Origin: a virus
Lineage: Duplodnaviria; Heunggongvirae; Uroviricota; Caudoviricetes
Length of the DNA: 64,000 nucleotides
Reading direction: 5' to 3' (one strand)
IMG/VR virus record: IMGVR_UViG_2541047850_000005
Coordinates: 3,554 to 67,553 of that record
Below, in pieces: positions 3,140-40,629 of this stretch. The position numbers and the translations under genes are program-made. The notes beneath the pieces were generated by a model, which saw nothing but the letters and a program-made list of their open reading frames with translations, searched no databases and had not been told where the DNA came from. Numbering within the stretch: the first letter of the stretch is position 1; every line of letters begins with the position of its first letter.

Positions 3140-3451
3140 TCAGGCTATTGCCATCACTGATGCTCTCTGAATCTCTTGCTGGGCCACGCGGTTAACTTCC
3201 ATCAAAGCCAGTTCGAGCTGATGTTCCGGCCACATTCTTTGAAATGCCATCCAGCCTTTTCCACGCTGGCGACGAACATTCATTACATAACGAGTAAAGG
3301 TGTTTTTATCGAAAGACACCGCTGTTTCACGGAACAGACGAATAGAGGTTCCATTGGCAACGATGTCCAGCAAAGTTAATTGAGCAACCAGCGCAGGCTT
3401 CTCTTTTCTCTTCTGGTCTTTGTCCAGACCAAGAACCAATGATTTTTTCAT
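3140..3451 (-). CDS. hypothetical protein (103 aa)
   Basis: ATG 3451 has GGAG 7 nt upstream. The longer track start (3481) would lie inside motif-1 palindrome 3462-3477. Confidence 0.6.
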   Translation of the reverse strand: MKKSLVLGLDKDQKRKEKPALVAQLTLLDIVANGTSIRLFRETAVSFDKNTFTRYVMNVRRQRGKGWMAFQRMWPEHQLELALMEVNRVAQQEIQRASVMAIA

Positions 3452-3604
3452 CACAACTCCGTAAACAACTTGTTTTCTCAATGTCGTAAATAATACCAGT
3501 AAGAAAACGGCTACAAAGCATATTGATCAGGTGCATGAGCGATATGCAGGTTCTTCCCTGCGGCTATAGAGAAATTAAGCCAGCAATGCTGGCTTTGGTT
3601 GGGA

Positions 3605-3934
3605 TTACGCGAATACCTCAAGAAACTCCTGAACGTCCCAATGCTGGACGAGGTGAAGATAGACCTTAGAAATCACGTCATTTTCACTATCGCATGTGAA
3701 GTAGTACTTCTGGCTGCGGTTGTATGTGTCCACACAAAATTCGCTCATATCCATAAAGTCAGCATCTTCACCCATGTCGCAAATCATCAAAGCAGGTGCG
3801 TCATCACGAGTCATCAGCTCCAGCACCCATATTGAATTAATCAGAGTGGAAGACCAACCTTCCAGCTCATAAAACTGGTCAAACTCTTTTTGAGTCAATT
3901 TCTTAATTTGGTTGATGTCGATATTTGCAAACAT
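3605..3934 (-). CDS. hypothetical acidic protein (109 aa)
   Basis: ATG 3934 has AAGGA 8 nt upstream. Earlier in-frame ATGs fall in or after motif-1 palindrome 3946-3961. Confidence 0.6.
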   Translation of the reverse strand: MFANIDINQIKKLTQKEFDQFYELEGWSSTLINSIWVLELMTRDDAPALMICDMGEDADFMDMSEFCVDTYNRSQKYYFTCDSENDVISKVYLHLVQHWDVQEFLEVFA

Positions 3935-4073
3935 AAAGCAATCCTTAAACATGTTGTTTTCTGAATTACGTAAACAATACCAGTAAGAAAACGGCCACAA
4001 AGTATATCGTTACGGTGCTGCGCTGCCCCGGAGGTTAATAGCGACAAAAGCCACCGTGCTGGTGGCCTCACTC

Positions 4074-4292
4074 TTAATCTTGGTCGTCCGGGAACTCGCT
4101 GTGTACCGCGCCAACCAGCTCCCGCTTTTCATCTTCACTCAGCAGGTGCCAGATATCCTTCCCTTTGGGCGATTCCCCTTCTGCCGGGACGAACGACCAC
4201 AACTTGCGGTACAACTCCGGCCCCACTGCATCCAGACACTCAGCCAGGGAATCCACGCCCCACACCTCAACCGTCACAGGCATCTTAATCAT
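4074..4292 (-). CDS. hypothetical acidic protein (72 aa)
   Basis: ORF with SD GAGGA. Hairpin GCCACCGTGCTGGTGGC lies downstream. Confidence 0.55.
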   Translation of the reverse strand: MIKMPVTVEVWGVDSLAECLDAVGPELYRKLWSFVPAEGESPKGKDIWHLLSEDEKRELVGAVHSEFPDDQD

Positions 4293-4319
4293 CTCTTCAT
4301 CCTCACTTCGTTTCTATAA

Positions 4320-5760
4320 CGTCTAAATATGCTGTTTACTTGTTGGTGTTATTATCGCAATAAGACAAAGGCGAAAAAGGATTTTATGTCGGGAAAGCCA
4401 GGCTGGGCAGTGAATATCCGGGAACGACACGAGAGCCAGTATTTACGATATTCTGCTCTACGCACGCCGCGGGGCTGGTGGGCAGAATAATCCTCTCCCC
4501 GAAAACCTACTGAAATCGATTGTGACCCGCTGGCTGTCTGGCACAATTACGCTGTATCTGGCATTCAGAGGGAATCCAGCGGTAAGCAAGTCAGCCTGCA
4601 CGTGAGCGTCTCTCTTCTTCCCGCACATTACAGGTGGGTAGCTGCAACTCTCTCTCGCTATACCGGTACGCCGCCGTTCCTGAACCGGCATCGAGCCTTT
4701 TCCCGAAATCCACACAGGCAACTCGACCGTTTCCCTGAAAATCCCCAGCCGTTTCTGTAGCGTATGCAACCTTTTCTCTGTATGGACCGAAGGCTGACCG
4801 TAGGGGTGTTACGGGGGATGATGGTAAGATGTTGAATAAATACGAAAAAGGAGGCGACACCCCTCCTTCCCTCCCCACTTATACATACCTTGCTTCTTCG
4901 CTATACATGTTGTGTTTTCTTCGTGTTTTATCTGTCTCAACCTCTCTATAGGCGTTAATGCTTACTCCTTCCAGAACGTTCTATACGGCGACTATTTCTG
5001 TTGGTGAATTGGGTGTGTTGTTTTCTCTGTCGATGTATGTGGTTTCGTTCGTTTTGCGGTGGTTCTTCTATGGGGTGTTCTCGTCGTTTTGGTGATTGTT
5101 CTTCTCCGTGTATGGAGTAATGGCAGGTGGGCGATTCCTTTCGTTATTGTGTTTGAGTTGTTTGTCTGGAGTGTGTGAAGGGCTTTTGTAGTTATTCGTG
5201 TATTGGGTAATGGCGTTTCCCGTGATTGTTATGTTTCGTGTCTTTTGGGATTGAGAGAAACCTTGCGGTTACAGGCTTCGTTGGGGTTTCAGCGGTTCAG
5301 GTGTTTCTTCGCTGTTTGGGTAATGGCGTGTCGTGGGTATCGCGCGTATGAATGTTTTCGGATTGCCTGTGAAAGTTAGGTTGGTTATCCGGTAGCCTGG
5401 GAAGAAGAGGTGGGGTCTTTTCGGTAGCCTGCCATAAAGAGGTTGGTTGTTTTGGGTAATGGCATATGTGTTATTTGGTTGTTTTGTTATGCCTGAAAAT
5501 AAGTTGTTTATATGGTTGTGTAACGCAACGGGAGCGATTTTGAGCGTGTGTTTTTGTTGGTAGTGTGTTGAGTCGTCTGTGGTGAAAATTGGACGCTGTG
5601 GAGCTGTCTGCTGCGTAGGTTTACGGGTATAAGAAGTGATGTGTGAAAACGTCAATTTTTTAGACCAAATCGGGAGAAAGCGTTGATGTTTCGTTGATCT
5701 GTTATTTAGTTGTTTTCTTATTGGTATAAACAACTGTAACCTATTGATATTTAAGGATGT
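4320..5760. other. ORF-poor region; its right 0.9 kb is strongly G+T-rich on the + strand and carries dispersed short direct repeats
   Basis: Only low-complexity or overlapping ORFs. TGGGTAATGGC-type repeat at about 5113, 5203, 5316 and 5452. CGGTAGCCTG occurs twice at about 5390 and 5423. Confidence 0.5.
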
Positions 5761-5861
5761 GATTGCAGGCATGGAAGGGGAGTAGTGGCGATCAACGGAT
5801 TCTTATAGAAAAGAATCAAATTGTGACCGCCATTATCAACGGTTTGAATATGTTTGCAGAT

Positions 5862-6161
5862 TTACCAGTTCCAGCACTCAAGCCCTTCAACGACCGGCGC
5901 ACCACAATCAAAATGTACAGAGTCAAAGCCTACATCAAGTACTTTCTGAATGTTAGCAATCGCGCCTTCGGATATACCATATCGACGCAAGTCGTCTTTC
6001 CAGACATCATCCTGTAACCCGGCGTGGACAATACAACCGCCATCAATTTGTGAAACCCAATCCAGCTCATTGCTTGCGATCATGAATCGGCGAGCATCTT
6101 CCTCTGATGTATGAGATGAACTGATCAATGCCACCTGGTAGGCTTGGGTAATGTTCAACAT
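5862..6161 (-). CDS. hypothetical protein (99 aa)
   Basis: ATG 6161 has GGAG 8 nt upstream (track start 6170 is a GTG). Two motif-1 palindromes upstream (6174, 6224). Confidence 0.6.
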   Translation of the reverse strand: MLNITQAYQVALISSSHTSEEDARRFMIASNELDWVSQIDGGCIVHAGLQDDVWKDDLRRYGISEGAIANIQKVLDVGFDSVHFDCGAPVVEGLECWNW

Positions 6162-6274
6162 TTCAACCACTCCAAAACAAGTTGTTTTCTTATGTGGCTT
6201 ATTATCTCTAACAACAAAAGGCAGAAAACAAATTGTTTTAGGTACTGTGTAAATCAGAAGGGATTGTGTCTATA

Positions 6275-6303
6275 TGAAAATGCCCGGCGTGTTGCCGGGC
6301 ATT
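6275..6303 (-). terminator. metG terminator
   Basis: Hairpin AATGCCCGGC..GCCGGGCATT followed by TTTTC on the minus strand. Confidence 0.75.
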
Positions 6304-6322
6304 GCGAAGAGAGGTTGCTTAA

Positions 6323-8356
6323 TTACTTAACCTGGTGACCAGGTTTAGCACCAGCATCCGGGCTTAACAGGAAGATATCTTTCCCACCAGGACCAGCAGC
6401 CATCACCATGCCTTCTGAGATACCGAAACGCATTTTACGCGGAGCCAGGTTAGCCACCATAATGGTGTGACGACCAATCAGTGCCTGTGGGTCTGGATAA
6501 GCAGAACGAATGCCGGAGAAGACATTACGCTTTTCCCCACCGAGATCCAGTGTCAGACGCAGCAGTTTGTCAGAGCCTTCAACAAACTCCGCGTTTTCAA
6601 TCAGCGCCACACGCAGGTCAACTTTGGCGAAGTCGTCAAAGGTGATGGTTTCCTGAATCGGGTCGTCAGCCAGTGGGCCAGTTACCGGTGCGGCTGTGGC
6701 TTTCACTTCTTCTTTGGATGCTTCCACCAGTGCTTCCACCTGTTTCATATCGATGCGGTTATACAGCGCCTTGAACGGATTCACTTTGTGGCCCAGCAGC
6801 GGTTGCTGGATACCATCCCAGGTCAGTTCTGTATTGAGGAATGCTTCTGCGCGCTCGGTCAGTTTCGGCAGTACCGGTTTCAGGTAAGTCATCAGCACGC
6901 GGAACAGGTTAATGCCCATAGAGCAAATCGCCTGCAGATCGGCATCGCGACCTTCCTGCTTCGCCACCACCCACGGAGCCTGTTCATCGACATAGCGGTT
7001 AGCCAGGTCAGCCAGTGCCATGATTTCACGGATAGCTTTACCAAATTCGCGGCTTTCCCATGCTTCGCCAATCACTTCAGCGGCATCAGTAAAGGTTTTG
7101 TACAGTTGCGGGTCAGCCAGTTCGCTTGCCAGCACGCCGTCAAAACGCTTGTTGATAAAGCCTGCATTACGGGAGGCCAGGTTAACCACTTTGTTCACGA
7201 TATCGGCATTCACTCGCTGAACGAAATCTTCCAGGTTGAGATCGATATCATCAATGCGCGAAGAGAGTTTCGCAGTGTAGTAGTAACGCAGGCTGTCGGC
7301 GTCAAAATGATTCAGCCAGGTGCTGGCTTTAATGAACGTGCCGCGAGACTTGGACATCTTCGCACCGTTCACCGTCACATAGCCATGAACAAACAGGTTG
7401 GTCGGCTTGCGGAAGTTGCTGCCTTCCAGCATGGCAGGCCAGAACAGGCTGTGGAAGTAAACGATATCTTTACCGATGAAGTGGTACAGCTCGGCGGTGG
7501 AGTCTTTCTTCCAGTATTCATCGAAGCTGGAGGTGTCGCCGCGTTTGTCGCACAGATTCTTGAAGGAACCCATGTAGCCAATCGGCGCGTCCAGCCAGAC
7601 GTAGAAATATTTGCCCGGCGCGTTCGGAATTTCAAAACCGAAATAAGGGGCGTCGCGGGAGATATCCCACTGTTGCAGGCCAGATTCAAACCACTCCTGC
7701 ATTTTATTTGCCACCTGCTCCTGCAACGCACCGCTGCGGGTCCATGCCTGCAGCATTTCGCTGAAAGAAGGCAGATCAAAGAAGAAGTGTTCGGAATCAC
7801 GCATTACCGGCGTAGCACCAGAAACTACCGATTTCGGCTCGATCAGTTCAGTCGGGCTGTAAGTCGCGCCGCAGACTTCACAGTTATCGCCGTATTGATC
7901 TGGCGCTTTACATTTAGGGCAGGTGCCTTTTACAAAACGGTCCGGCAGGAACATGCCTTTTTCCGGGTCGTATAACTGAGAGATGGTGCGGTTTTTAATA
8001 AAACCGTTCTCTTTCAGGCGAGTATAAATAAGCTCGGACAACTGACGGTTCTCTTCGCTGTGCGTCGAGTGATAGTTGTCATAGCTGATGTTAAAGCCTG
8101 CAAAATCAGTCTGGTGTTCCTGACTCATTTCGCCAATCATCTGTTCCGGTGTGATACCAAGCTGCTGTGCTTTCAGCATGATCGGTGTGCCGTGGGCATC
8201 GTCGGCACAGATGAAATTAACCTCGTGGCCGCGCATTCGCTGGTAACGAACCCAGACATCAGCCTGGATGTGCTCCAGCATATGGCCGAGGTGGATTGAG
8301 CCGTTAGCGTACGGCAGCGCGCACGTCACCAGAATTTTCTTCGCGACTTGGGTCAT
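6323..8356 (-). CDS. metG: methionyl-tRNA synthetase
   Basis: 677 aa from [30 protein letters not shown] motif present, plus a C-terminal tRNA-binding domain. Near-identical to E. coli MetG as recalled. Confidence 0.97.
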
Positions 8357-8513
8357 AGTAGGCATTACTTCTTTGTAGTGAAAAGGGGCTTGATAGTAAC
8401 AAAATGGCCTTATGTCTGCCATGTGATAACAGCATTTCTCATAAATGATTAAATGCCGTAGCTGGAGTACACTACAAGGCGACAATTGCGCAAATTAAAA
8501 TAAAGGAGACGGG

Positions 8514-9614
8514 ATGAGCGAGTCCAAATCGCCGGATGCCCTGAGAGCAATGGTAGCCGGTACGCTGGCTAATTTTCAGCACCCAACCCTGAAACACAAC
8601 CTGACTACGCTTAAAGCGTTACACCATGTTGCGTTGATGGATGACACACTGCATGTCGAACTAATCATGCCTTTCGTGTGGAATAAGCCTTTTGAAGACC
8701 TGAAAGAGCAATGTAGTGGTGATCTGCTCCGTATCACTGGCGCAAAGGCTATCGACTGGAAGCTGTCGTACAACATTGCCACGCTTAAGCGCGTCAAAAA
8801 CCAACCAGGCATTAATGGCGTTAAGAACATTATCGCCGTCAGCTCAGGCAAGGGCGGCGTTGGTAAATCCTCCACGGCGGTAAACCTGGCACTGGCGTTG
8901 GCTGCTGAAGGTGCGAAAGTTGGTATTTTGGATGCCGATATCTACGGGCCATCAATTCCAACCATGCTTGGCGCGGAAAACCAACGTCCAACCTCACCGG
9001 ACGGTACTCACATGGCACCGATTATGTCTCATGGACTGGCAACCAATTCAATTGGTTATCTGGTAACTGACGACAATGCGATGGTGTGGCGTGGTCCGAT
9101 GGCGAGCAAGGCGTTAATGCAGATGTTGCAGGAAACTCTATGGCCTGATCTGGACTATCTCGTTCTCGATATGCCGCCGGGTACTGGTGATATTCAGCTG
9201 ACGCTGGCGCAGAACATTCCTGTAACTGGTGCTGTTGTGGTAACTACGCCGCAAGATATCGCGCTGATCGATGCGAAGAAAGGCATTGTGATGTTCGAAA
9301 AAGTCGAAGTGCCGGTACTGGGTATCGTCGAAAACATGAGTGTGCATATTTGCAGTAACTGCGGTCATCACGAGCCAATTTTTGGCACCGGTGGCGCACA
9401 GAAACTGGCCGAGAAATACAACACGCAGTTGTTAGGCCAAATGCCACTTCATATCTCTCTTCGTGAAGATCTGGATAACGGAACACCAACCGTTATTAGT
9501 CGTCCAGATAGCGAATTTACGGCTATTTATCGTGACCTTGCAGATCGCGTTGCTGCCCAAATGTATTGGCAAGGTGAAGTAATACCTGGCGAAATCGCAT
9601 TCCGCGCAGTGTGA
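8514..9614 (+). CDS. apbC: Fe-S cluster carrier ATPase ApbC/Mrp
   Basis: P-loop SSGKGGVGKSS and CSNCGHH motif. Divergent from metG as in E. coli. SD AAGGAG. Confidence 0.95.
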   Translation: MSESKSPDALRAMVAGTLANFQHPTLKHNLTTLKALHHVALMDDTLHVELIMPFVWNKPFEDLKEQCSGDLLRITGAKAIDWKLSYNIATLKRVKNQPGINGVKNIIAVSSGKGGVGKSSTAVNLALALAAEGAKVGILDADIYGPSIPTMLGAENQRPTSPDGTHMAPIMSHGLATNSIGYLVTDDNAMVWRGPMASKALMQMLQETLWPDLDYLVLDMPPGTGDIQLTLAQNIPVTGAVVVTTPQDIALIDAKKGIVMFEKVEVPVLGIVENMSVHICSNCGHHEPIFGTGGAQKLAEKYNTQLLGQMPLHISLREDLDNGTPTVISRPDSEFTAIYRDLADRVAAQMYWQGEVIPGEIAFRAV

Positions 9615-38721: not shown

Positions 38722-38944
38722 TTATTCACATATCCACAGGATAGATCCTAATAAAGAGATCCATAGATAGATCCTTGTATAGATCAAATAAGATCCCCGA
38801 TCGCTGTAAGCCGCGCCACGACTGGTCTGAAGCCATGTTCATGTATGCTGTCAGCGGTAATTGATAGTCTGTCAGCGGTTCACCGTATGCTGCCAACTGT
38901 TTTTGGTATTCTGTCAGCGGCAAATCAAGTATGCTGTCAGCGGT
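38722..38944 (+). other. P1-oriR-like plasmid origin (DnaA boxes, GATC cluster, 5 iterons)
   Basis: TTATTCACA and ATATCCACA at 38722-38738. GATC at 38744, 38758, 38770, 38782, 38792 and 38799. Iterons at 38843-38944. Confidence 0.75.
38843..38944 (+). repeat. upstream iteron array (5 copies, spaced about 21 bp)
   Basis: GTATGCTGTCAGCGGT at 38843 and 38929. Variants at 38865, 38885 and 38906. Confidence 0.85.
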
Positions 38945-38964
38945 TGAATGACAAAGGTGTCCAC

Positions 38965-40059
38965 ATGTCCACAAAAAATAAAAAAGGTAAAAATAACAAA
39001 GAAGTAGAAGATAACATCGACAACTTTGAAGAAGGTTCCCTTGAATTGTACACAGGGGAACTTGTCCCTAATAGCAACAATACAGTCCAACCAATTGCGT
39101 TGATGCGACTGGGGTTGTTCGTCCCCACGCTTAAGGGAACAAAATACAGTAAACGTAACAAGCCAAATGAGATCGATGCTTCAAAGGAGCTTGTCCAGCT
39201 CGAAGTAGCCCGTTCTGAAGGCTATTCCGATATCAAGATAACCGGTCCTCGTCTCGACATGGATCATGATTTCAAAACGTGGGTGGGCGTTGTGCGTTCG
39301 CTGGCAGAATACGGCGAACCTAATGGTCGTGTCGAGTTAAGCATCACGAAATTTGCGAAGTTTTGTGGCTATCCATCGTCACAGATCCGCAAAACACTCC
39401 GCGACCGGCTTACAAACAGTCTTTTGAAGATCATGCGTACAACTCTGTCTTTCCAGAGAACGTATGAAGAAAAGAACGTCGACGGCTCTAACAAGATCTC
39501 GCTTCTGATGGTGCACCTCATCAATAGCGTGGACTACAACGAGCAGAAAGATACGGTGGTGTTCTATGCAGAACCGAAGCTGGCCGAACTATATCGCTTT
39601 GACCATAAGGTTCTTTTGCAGTTAAAGGTTATCAATAAGCTACCACGCAAAGAAACAGCACAGGCTCTGTACACCTTCATCGAAAGTCTTCCAACCAAGC
39701 CTGCGCCGGTATCGCTTGCTCGATTGCGTGCGCGACTCAATTTGAGTAGCAGGAATGTCAGCTCGCAGAATCAGACTATACGTAACGGCTTAAAAGCTCT
39801 CCAAGATTTGGGCTATCTCGAATACAGCGAGATTAAGCGTGGGCGGTCGATCTATATCCAGATTCACAGCCGCAATCCAAAACTCAAAGTCGCACCGCCA
39901 AAACCTGAAGACATCGAACCCAAAAAACCAGATGAGAAAGCTGGGGAAATTGATGCCAAACAGAACATTATCAACAAGATAACCGAACTTTCGCAGAATT
40001 TGACGCCTGAAAATATCAAGATGATTGAGATCCTTTCCAATAGTCTCAAACTGCTTTGA
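38965..40059 (+). CDS. repA: iteron-type replication initiator
   Basis: 364 aa from MSTKNKKGKNNKE. ATG lies 20 bp after the last iteron. The track start 38845 lies inside the iterons. Flanked by arrays as in P1/RepFIB. Confidence 0.8.
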   Translation: MSTKNKKGKNNKEVEDNIDNFEEGSLELYTGELVPNSNNTVQPIALMRLGLFVPTLKGTKYSKRNKPNEIDASKELVQLEVARSEGYSDIKITGPRLDMDHDFKTWVGVVRSLAEYGEPNGRVELSITKFAKFCGYPSSQIRKTLRDRLTNSLLKIMRTTLSFQRTYEEKNVDGSNKISLLMVHLINSVDYNEQKDTVVFYAEPKLAELYRFDHKVLLQLKVINKLPRKETAQALYTFIESLPTKPAPVSLARLRARLNLSSRNVSSQNQTIRNGLKALQDLGYLEYSEIKRGRSIYIQIHSRNPKLKVAPPKPEDIEPKKPDEKAGEIDAKQNIINKITELSQNLTPENIKMIEILSNSLKLL

Positions 40060-40176
40060 TATGCTGTCAGCGGTGAAATGTATGCTATCAGCGGCTATTT
40101 TTCTGAAAAGTATGCTGTGAACGGTTAAAGATATGCTACCAGCGGTATAGTGAGATAAACGTATGCTGTGAGCGGT
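40058..40176 (+). repeat. downstream iteron array A (5 copies)
   Basis: (G/A)TATGCT(G/A)(T/C)(C/G)A(G/A)CGG(T/C) at 40058, 40080, 40110, 40131 and 40161. Confidence 0.85.
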
Positions 40177-40336
40177 AAATCATCTATCACCACTCAATGC
40201 TCTTTTATACCTCCCCAGTGGTTACTAACCTCGAAGAGTGCATTCCATATAGGTTTGCGCTCACTAACATTCTATTCCCATTGCGCTGATTACTTGTAGT
40301 GAAAGGTATTTATTGCCTGCTGCTCCCTGATAGAAC

Positions 40337-40591
40337 GTATGCTGTCAGCGGTGTTTTATTGAGGAATTTTTGTTTGGATATGCTATCAGCGGTAATTAAT
40401 GGCATATGTCAGACCTTCGTATGCTGCCAGCGGTAATTTTGTTCTGGTTATACCCATACCGGTACACATTATTCATGCAATGTCTTAAGTATGCTGTCAG
40501 CGGTAAAAAATCGAGTAAAGTATGCTGTGAGCGGTGAGATAGACTCTCGATATGCTATCAGCGGCAGTTGATTGTGTATGCTGTCAGCGGT
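40337..40591 (+). repeat. downstream iteron array B (7 copies)
   Basis: Same 16-mer at 40337, 40378, 40419, 40489, 40520, 40550 and 40576, all in one orientation. Confidence 0.85.
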
Positions 40592-40600
40592 GACGACTAT

Positions 40601-40629
40601 GAAATATGACTGCGGAACGTGCCGCAGTC
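40601..40629 (-). terminator. terminator of the 40639..41186 operon
   Basis: GACTGCGG..CCGCAGTC hairpin followed by an AT-rich tail. Confidence 0.55.

Follow-up and report, generated by a model that had tools for sequence, protein, structure and literature searches.

What does a phage-plasmid keep a long stretch of gene-free DNA for? The question is raised by a locus in 64,000 nucleotides (nt) of tailed-phage DNA (positions 3,554 to 67,553 of IMG/VR record IMGVR_UViG_2541047850_000005; this whole stretch is the window, and positions below refer to it), which derive from a phage-plasmid of the SSU5/pHCM2 type. A preliminary description, made from the letters alone, had marked positions 4320–5760 as poor in open reading frames (ORFs) and biased in composition. 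The region is indeed ORF-poor, but the gene-free gap really runs from 4293 to 5861 and has two unlike halves: a biased one, read on the minus strand from 5840 to 4845, which we call the element, and a left sub-region (4844–4360) to which the bias does not extend. The element is the largest conserved non-coding region of SSU5/pHCM2-type phage-plasmids. The evidence points to an element that acts on one strand, at the level of RNA, and we tentatively favor a role as a transcription barrier that loads Rho and insulates a conserved early operon.

The compositional bias is strong and local. From 4880 to 5620 the plus strand contains A 0.148, C 0.142, G 0.305, and T 0.405. Over 4885–5620 it is 71% G+T, approximately 7 standard deviations (sd) from the window mean, which bears out the bias first noticed at about 4880–5620; the maximum per 600 nt is 0.738, at 5001 (window mean 0.504, sd 0.033), and a run low in A and C, GGTTTCGTTCGTTTTGCGGTGGTTCTTC, lies at 5040–5068. 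In p09EL50, a complete related plasmid of 109 kb, the element is the only stretch more than 3.5 sd off the mean. All flanking genes have the A/C-rich strand as their sense strand. On this minus strand the body of the element (4886–5625), which composition, folding, and ORF tests characterize as A/C-rich, untranslated, and almost unstructured, has A 0.41, C 0.31, G 0.14, and U 0.15. The median C/G ratio in 78-nt windows is 2.27, against 0.90 window-wide, and C exceeds G without interruption from 5864, at the upstream stop codon, to 4960. This run of approximately 900 nt is five times longer than any other in the 64 kb. In relatives, C is 0.28–0.32 and G 0.14–0.19 over 716–772 nt, and the C>G runs are interrupted.

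Does the element encode a protein? The sole sizeable ORF in its biased part is the 167 amino acid, low-complexity minus-strand ORF already predicted in the preliminary description (5269–5772). Neither this ORF nor two others in the gap match Pfam or PHROG, while every real neighboring gene matches a PHROG. No ORF is conserved, the longest having 26 to 114 codons depending on the lineage; insertions and deletions in the element are not in multiples of three; and start codons are few in the body, GTG being depleted (4 observed, 20.6 expected). In the listed records and in 245 E. coli plasmids the NCBI annotation pipeline leaves the stretch between the flanking genes blank, and other annotators place differing, mutually inconsistent ORFs on the region, record by record. 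We rejected a coding region on the missing Pfam and PHROG matches, the lack of a conserved ORF, and the lineage-variable ORF lengths.

The element is widely conserved in relatives, so the lack of conservation that had been named as grounds for doubting its function is not what we see. Positions 4300–5800 share 99.8% identity with Escherichia phage PhiR41_1 and 91%–97% with SSU5-like phage-plasmids of E. coli, including Cyrano (pLF82, the phage-plasmid of strain LF82). SSU5, Klebsiella phage-plasmids, and plasmids of Enterobacter, Cronobacter, and Salmonella have an island at the same position, at an identity of only 68%–75%. The element region matches at least 835 PLSDB plasmids by sensitive blastn (661 by megablast) from approximately ten enterobacterial genera, among them Klebsiella, Escherichia, Enterobacter, Salmonella, Citrobacter, Cronobacter, Shigella, Kluyvera, and Buttiauxella. 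For complete E. coli genomes, matches lie on plasmids in 245 of 5426 and never on the chromosome. A degenerate-pattern scan of genome contigs confirmed one Kluyvera contig as a homolog, its other matches being mostly due to chance.

Length and composition are kept as well. The distance from the first conserved block (block 1, described below) to the terminal hairpin is 1027–1092 nt in 32 loci; the body measures 716–772 nt with a sense-strand A+C of 0.66–0.71 in 10 aligned sequences, and A+C is 0.62–0.72 in 22 further, more divergent IMG/VR variants. Between genera, identity is 71%–76% in the body, 81%–95% in blocks 1 and 2, and 65%–93% in neighboring protein genes, so that the body diverges no faster than its neighbors. 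The genes to the left are conserved, and those to the right (upstream on the minus strand) vary by lineage. The substitution spectrum was uninformative as a test of selection on composition, distant pairs being saturated and close pairs dominated by transitions. Since no ORF is conserved, indels ignore the reading frame, divergence is gene-like, and length is kept, we conclude from these alignments that the element is non-coding and under selection. We found no description of the region in the literature searched; a preprint on phage-plasmid heteroresistance concerns an unrelated 49-kb family.

Read along the minus strand, the element begins with block 1 (5786–5840), a two-tier stem-loop without a U-tract, approximately 20 nt past the upstream stop codon. 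Its outer stem pairs UGGCGGUCA (5832–5824) with UGAUCGCCA (5794–5786) and encloses an inner helix and a UCUAUAAGA loop. The 9-bp outer stem, which includes one G.U pair, is identical in all 28 distinct sequences; the E. coli and SSU5 types build the inner helix from different sequences; and the minimum free energy (MFE) of the block is −19.5 kcal/mol (z −4.2). In other lineages block 1 lies 13–76 nt (in one, 247 nt) past unrelated upstream genes. We rejected an RfaH ops site here by inspection: only GGCGGT matches, and 4 of 12 positions depart from the consensus. A variable, C-rich, nearly G-free stretch follows in the alignments (5725–5785; C 19–21 and G 7–13 per 78-nt window).

Block 2 (5626–5719) is 81%–95% identical across genera. 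It contains a AAGAAAACAAC box (5719–5709), two ATCAACG/GTCAACG sites, an inverted GTTGAC (TTGACGTTT, 5655–5647), and CTTATA (5633–5628), and the alignments predict a hairpin formed by GAAAAC/GUUUUC and GUCAAC/GUUGAC. The block is only weakly promoter-like (TTGACG, 18 nt, and TATACC with C at −7); TTGACG-N18-TATACC was rejected as a sigma-70 promoter for want of a T at −7, and it was called in none of the lineages scanned. More generally, the scan upstream of the body gave no canonical sigma-70 promoter in the E. coli, SSU5, or Klebsiella versions.

The short direct repeats reported earlier are all present in the body. On the minus strand, GCCATTAC(C/T)C occurs in four copies where 0.01 would be expected; motif scan and alignment place them at 5452–5463, 5316–5327, 5203–5214, and 5113–5124, the last reading GCCATTACTCCA and then TACACGGAGAAGAAC. 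The motif is asymmetric and non-palindromic, all copies share one orientation, the spacings are irregular (90, 113, and 136 nt), and SSU5 types hold up to five exact copies. A 32-nt tandem of 2.2 copies (CGGTAGCCTG...AGAGGTKGG; TRF score 82) lies at 5390–5458; its minus-strand unit, ACC(C/A)ACCUCUU-N5-CAGGCUACCGAAAAG, is kept in all 10 aligned sequences. An operator-like palindrome, AAACAACTTATTT (AAACAAGTTGTTT in SSU5 types), aligns at 5497–5509, with a second AAAACAAC..AAATAACAC box after it at 5466–5490. AGAAAUAGUCGCCGUAUAGAGCGUU is a further conserved island. The element closes at 4845–4885 with an invariant block of GUAUAAG and polypurines (GUGGGGAGGGAAGGAGGGG), which pairs as 5′ arm with CCUCCUUUUU in the terminal hairpin, and then a U-rich tail. 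The pairs of this hairpin (4871–4845) are kept through GC/AU/GU changes; it scored as terminator-like in E. coli and Klebsiella and not in SSU5, such calls being at chance level in the region.

How does the RNA of the element fold? Hardly at all: the MFE of the body is −104.7 kcal/mol, compared with −206.9 ± 25.1 for other minus-strand segments of 735 nt, making it the least structured segment tested (−0.14 kcal/mol per nt; z +4.1 relative to the window's other segments; 67% of bases unpaired). Because A cannot pair with C, an RNA made of these two bases would be both C-rich and free of structure. The conserved hairpins hold G.U pairs, which on the other strand become C.A mismatches. Such pairs work only on the minus strand, and we therefore assign the folding to it. 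A keto/amino asymmetry sustained over 740 bp is hard to explain by double-stranded protein-binding sites and thus suggests a function in a single strand. Together with the sense-strand bias at the flanking genes and the absence of a conserved ORF, the minus-strand-only G.U pairs point to action at the RNA level. Among the four roles that the preliminary description had offered (a centromere or partition array, a second, lytic origin, a protein-titration array, and a long C+A-rich minus-strand RNA), only the last fits the evidence.

Is such an RNA made? Published strand-specific RNA-seq of LF82 carrying Cyrano, which is 92% identical here, gives gene-level values as log2(FPKM+5), FPKM being fragments per kilobase per million mapped reads. 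CYRAN_102, the gene just upstream of the Cyrano element, has FPKM 64 and 50. For CYRAN_103, spanning block 2 and approximately 240 nt at the start of the body, the two LB replicates give 2.32 (FPKM 0), and eight further samples give values near zero. Downstream, CYRAN_105 reaches log2 7.8 in some conditions. Since CYRAN_102 is expressed and CYRAN_103 is at the floor, upstream transcription probably does not persist into the element in lysogens. An RNA of the element's own, if it exists, is probably not made in lysogens.

These observations can be joined into a tentative mechanism, in which we infer both the involvement of Rho and the insulating role. Whichever gene lies upstream, its leftward transcription on the minus strand would bring polymerase into the element. 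Block 1 would be transcribed first and form its stable stem-loop without a U-tract; approximately 0.9 kb of untranslated RNA, nearly all A and C, unfoldable and with few start codons, would then emerge. Such RNA would be an ideal substrate for Rho to load on and track along, and Rho would release the polymerase. Exonucleases might then degrade the transcript as far as the block 1 hairpin, which would serve as a protective 3′ end, and the far-end hairpin at 4871–4845 could act as a back-up intrinsic terminator. The outcome would be an early operon shielded from read-through out of the variable, partly lysogeny-expressed cargo region. The internal repeats (GCCAUUAC..ACGGAGAAGAAC, the 32-nt tandem, and the operator-like palindrome) are probably binding sites for a phage factor, which could then govern the passage of polymerase through the element during the lytic cycle.

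The anatomy resembles that of known Rho-dependent 3′ ends, which in E. coli are reported to have a stable stem-loop without U residues and a rut region directly downstream (Dar and Sorek 2018, PMC6061677). With these terminators (PMC6061677) the element shares a U-less stem-loop just past a coding region, followed by C-rich, G-poor, unstructured, and untranslated RNA; the drop of the lysogen counts to zero downstream in a close relative may be a further likeness. The untranslated tract exceeds approximately 80 nt with C well above G, there is little secondary structure where the rut region would lie, and block 1, stable and free of a U-tract, stands directly upstream of it. Unlike the usual terminators, the element has a C>G tract approximately ten times longer than a rut region, a conserved length, conserved internal repeats, and an end hairpin of its own.

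Several points weigh against the barrier. A Rho terminator needs approximately 100 nt, not 0.9 kb, and has no need of a conserved length or conserved repeats, which a barrier leaves unexplained; two intrinsic terminators would insulate equally well at far less cost in genome length. Only in this E. coli lineage does the C>G run continue unbroken from the stop codon: in SSU5, Enterobacter, and Klebsiella the element has 17%–19% G, and the run is broken into pieces of 200–300 windows. With block 1 so near the stop codon (in Cyrano, 13 nt away), a barrier would require very early termination or a very unstable RNA. Finally, the zero count comes from a relative, from lysogens only, and from only the first third of the element.

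Conditional termination in phages is known from the nut/tR1 region of lambda, and phage-encoded Rho antagonists such as the Psu protein of P4 also exist. With these systems the proposed barrier would share a setting in an early phage region, a Rho-dependent stop between gene blocks, and control of read-through by phage factors. Unlike nut/tR1, the element has no recognizable boxA/boxB-like or put-like element and no Rfam match, and no antiterminator gene was identified in the window.

The conserved length and sequence islands would be better accounted for if the element specified a dedicated noncoding RNA of approximately 0.8–1.0 kb, made in the lytic cycle as a single-stranded platform or decoy for an RNA-binding protein, possibly Rho. 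We regard this as possible, if rather improbable. The RNA would arise either at a block 2 promoter that is weak or needs an activator, or as the long 3′ untranslated region of a derepressed upstream early gene; its ends would be pinned by the block 2 hairpin, the helices CUUAUA/UAUAAG and ACGCUC/GAGCGU, and the terminal hairpin, so as to display A/C loops and GCCAUUAC repeats. The strand-specific motifs, with all repeats in the same orientation, suit such an RNA. Support also comes from folding: against shuffled sequences the minus strand folds slightly better (z −1.8) and the plus strand worse (z +3.0), and RNAalifold on 10, 28, and 50 sequences repeatedly returns the block 1, block 2, and terminal hairpins and the two body-closing helices. 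The UAUAAG of the terminal block complements the CUUAUA of block 2; both are unchanged in 10 of 10 displayed sequences, and 99% of cells are paired over 50 sequences.

Does covariation support this fold? Alignment cells with double changes number 116 in 28 sequences, against 27–53 in slid controls, and 182 in 50 sequences, against 32–89; overall they are 2–5 times the controls. Counted by pair the excess shrinks, to 23 pairs with double changes against 9–14 (28 sequences) and to a barely raised 25 against 13–23 (50 sequences). The long-range helix 74–80/1096–1102 is lost in the most divergent variants, and in the E. coli type several helices of the body are disrupted. We judge the covariation evidence for a fold of the element RNA to be weak to moderate: the local hairpins are supported and the global fold is unproven. 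Two further findings tell against a dedicated RNA, namely the lack of a canonical promoter in any lineage scanned and the FPKM of approximately 0 in lysogens. A search of Rfam 15, whose families include CsrB, CrcZ, GOLLD, ROOL, and phage RNAs, found nothing at the gathering score in the 64 kb and nothing even at E ≤ 5 in 4200–5900.

The known large RNAs of phages and prophages offer only a partial parallel. GOLLD and ROOL, RNAs of 0.6–1 kb without a known function, are borne by phages or prophages and are silent in the quiescent state. The element is similar in size, phage-borne, and likewise silent; unlike them, with their dense structure and abundant covariation, its RNA is the least structured in the window, covaries weakly, and matches nothing in Rfam. 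A second parallel is the protein-sponge RNAs (CsrB/RsmZ for CsrA, CrcZ for Hfq/Crc) and the G-poor, unstructured omega leader of tobacco mosaic virus, (CAA)n, which share with the element short repeated motifs in single-stranded A/C-rich RNA. The sponge motifs GGA, ANGGA, and (ARN)4 are not enriched in the element, their counts being near expectation in all lineages, and this too speaks against a platform for these proteins. We rejected a CsrA sponge (GGA and ANGGA counts match composition-matched simulations) and an Hfq/Crc sponge (there is no excess of (ARN)4 tracts, and AC/CA dinucleotides are as frequent as expected). To our knowledge, the GCCAUUAC motif has no known partner. It is tempting, if speculative and on present evidence unlikely, to think of a new kind of large phage RNA, an early-lytic, structure-free, A/C-rich, high-capacity decoy of approximately 1 kb, its ends joined by a few helices, that traps a host machine binding single-stranded RNA. 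Rho would be its most attractive target, making it an RNA counterpart of P4 Psu, with the GCCAUUAC..ACGGAGAAGAAC repeats as trapping or recruitment sites.

Could the element work as DNA instead? It might be a cis-acting site of lytic growth (an origin, a priming zone, or a recombination zone) whose G+T-rich strand is exposed single-stranded, with the GCCATTAC repeats as would-be sites for a phage initiator. The phage-plasmid encodes a replisome of its own, comprising DnaE, a DnaB-like helicase, a toprim protein, RecA, ligase, RNase HI, and a 5′–3′ exonuclease. A replisome of its own probably implies a second origin, used in lytic growth; none has been annotated. The region is also silent in lysogens and promoterless, its repeated, asymmetric 8-mers are reminiscent of phage P4 initiator sites, and G+T-rich single strands are preferred substrates of RecA. 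We nevertheless consider such a site improbable. The element has no perfect DnaA box, no conserved site for IHF, and no strong AT-rich unwinding element (40-nt windows reach at most 75%–82% AT, at a position that is not conserved); its repeats are few and irregularly spaced; and Chi-like words are not enriched. An A/C-rich RNA on a G/T-rich template forms an unfavorable R-loop, and double-stranded binding sites leave the strand asymmetry unexplained. Candidate origins failed one by one: a DnaA/IHF type for lack of conserved sites, an origin by skew since the cumulative GC skew of the 109-kb p09EL50 is monotonic and has no turning point at the element, and a second RepA-iteron origin since the iterons (TATGCTGTCAGCGG) differ in sequence, lie at 38823–40611, and are not seen in the element. 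With these hallmarks missing, the lytic origin suggested in the preliminary description loses its footing. A Chi/RecBCD attenuation cluster was rejected too: Chi-like words on the plus strand are at or below expectation, and the true Chi sites, at 4058 and 4474, lie outside the biased part.

Two further explanations carry little weight. The element might be a decayed gene or neutral spacer of no present function, skewed by local mutational bias, as its poverty in ORFs and the record-to-record disagreement of spurious ORFs would allow; this is very unlikely, given conservation at the level of neighboring genes in at least 835 plasmids of approximately ten genera, invariant blocks, conserved length, sharp boundaries that coincide with functional landmarks, flanking DNA without skew, and no detectable remnant of a protein family. 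A plasmid centromere or protein-titration array, suggested by one-strand direct repeats in a conserved non-coding block, is scarcely credible: the spacing is irregular, the repeats are non-palindromic, no par gene adjoins the element, the ParA-family gene and its partner lie at 93.2–94.2 kb of p09EL50 and the element at 25.8–27.3 kb (approximately 65 kb apart), and the element or its surroundings can be disrupted in nature, as in one IMG/VR contig of a related element that lost all of it in a deletion associated with an insertion sequence (IS) and in a 52-kb derivative plasmid with IS100 in the left sub-region. It shares with iteron arrays and centromeres (RepFIB iterons, P1 parS, F sopC) direct repeats in non-coding plasmid DNA; unlike them, its spacing is irregular, the plasmid's own iterons differ and lie elsewhere, the par-like genes are distant, and such a site would leave the strand asymmetry unaccounted for. 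The suggestion of a partition site had leaned on the absence of a par locus, and this premise is unsafe because relatives carry a ParA-family module outside the window. In p09EL50 this module, at 93206–94233 (3206–4233 of our locus L018), comprises a ParA/MinD-family ATPase of 222 amino acids (Pfam: MipZ, AAA_31, CbiA) and a 117 amino acid gene product, a probable type Ib partition module, and it is retained in the 52-kb deletion derivative CP057434.

IS-associated deletion or truncation affects 2 of 28 IMG/VR loci, and copies reduced to block 1, block 2, and part of the body occur in large Klebsiella IncFIB/IncU plasmids of 175–450 kb. In one (L009, 5720–6470) homology stops abruptly approximately two-thirds of the way through the body, with unrelated DNA beyond; another candidate lies in L010 (approximately 6001–6355). 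IS5- and IS3-family transposases are annotated near these copies, which look like relics of recombination with phage-plasmids.

The left sub-region (4360–4844) has no composition bias. Its length is 516–595 nt, or 780 nt in SSU5 types, and it shows no conserved ORF and no conserved structure; a structured RNA was rejected here, the covariation term being approximately zero. On its minus strand, GGGAAA(A/C)GGCTGG repeats at 4640–4800 (5729–5840 in locus L003), spaced 22, 31, and 44 nt with a phase of roughly 22 nt, have a weak iteron-like look and are not conserved in Klebsiella. SSU5-type lineages have here an extra plus-strand gene of 80 amino acids, SSU5_110 (L003 5280–5522; same position in L012, L013, and L015), between the early-operon promoter and the terminal hairpin and transcribed towards the element. 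It has no Pfam match, and the left part of the E. coli types holds no remnant of it. Two plus-strand Chi sites, 4058–4065 and 4474–4481, lie 416 bp apart in the orientation that serves RecBCD coming from the right; the second, in non-coding DNA, is conserved in the E. coli and Klebsiella versions and not in SSU5.

Beyond the left sub-region lies the early operon. Its promoter (4331–4359, minus strand) has an extended −10 element, TGCGATAAT (4359–4351), followed by a AAGTAAACAGC box (4341–4331), the same layout as at other box-bearing promoters, and precedes a 72 amino acid gene (4292–4074); TTATTGCGATAATAACACC is invariant in a five-sequence alignment. The preliminary description had placed a degenerate promoter of one motif at each end of the region. 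The copy at 4331 does stand behind an extended −10 element; the one at 5709–5719 matches AAGAAAACAAC exactly and lacks a GATAAT −10. The AAGAAAACAAC box occurs 12 times in the window where 2.3 would be expected. A perfect 13-bp palindrome, AAACAAnTTGTTT, which overlaps the box approximately 10 nt past GATAAT-type −10 elements and before minus-strand genes, is found at 3463, 6175, 6226, 19775, 20504, and 42175, with variants near 1801, 3953, and 5497. Because the palindrome comes after GATAAT −10 boxes at several promoters, it is probably the operator of an early-gene repressor, and the early-operon promoter at 4351–4359 appears to be operator-controlled. Two copies 51 bp apart lie upstream of the minus-strand gene 5862–6170 (Pfam: DUF5983, E-value 7.6E-11), which is directly upstream of the element.

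Farther upstream lies cargo. A full-length methionyl-tRNA synthetase is encoded on the minus strand (6323–8485) and an ApbC/Mrp-type P-loop ATPase on the plus strand, opposite (8514–9614). Both genes are absent from the SSU5 and Klebsiella lineages, and the LF82 homolog of the ATPase gene, CYRAN_99, is expressed in lysogeny. The plasmid replicon is of the RepFIB type: the iteron (G)TATGCTGTCAGCGG, present in more than a dozen copies, forms arrays at 38823–38964 and 40058–40611, with 21–22-bp phasing upstream, and homology to p09EL50 places repA between them.

What would this mean for the phage-plasmids themselves? SSU5/pHCM2-type elements are common in clinical Enterobacteriaceae and can carry resistance genes, and their regulation and lytic replication are almost unstudied. 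If the Rho-based insulator is real, it would show how transcription of cargo is kept from leaking into lytic genes and would provide a very long natural Rho substrate for study; if the element instead gives a lytic-phase RNA or serves as an origin, a gap in the known life cycle would be closed. Whichever reading holds, its invariant blocks are a specific marker for this plasmid family.

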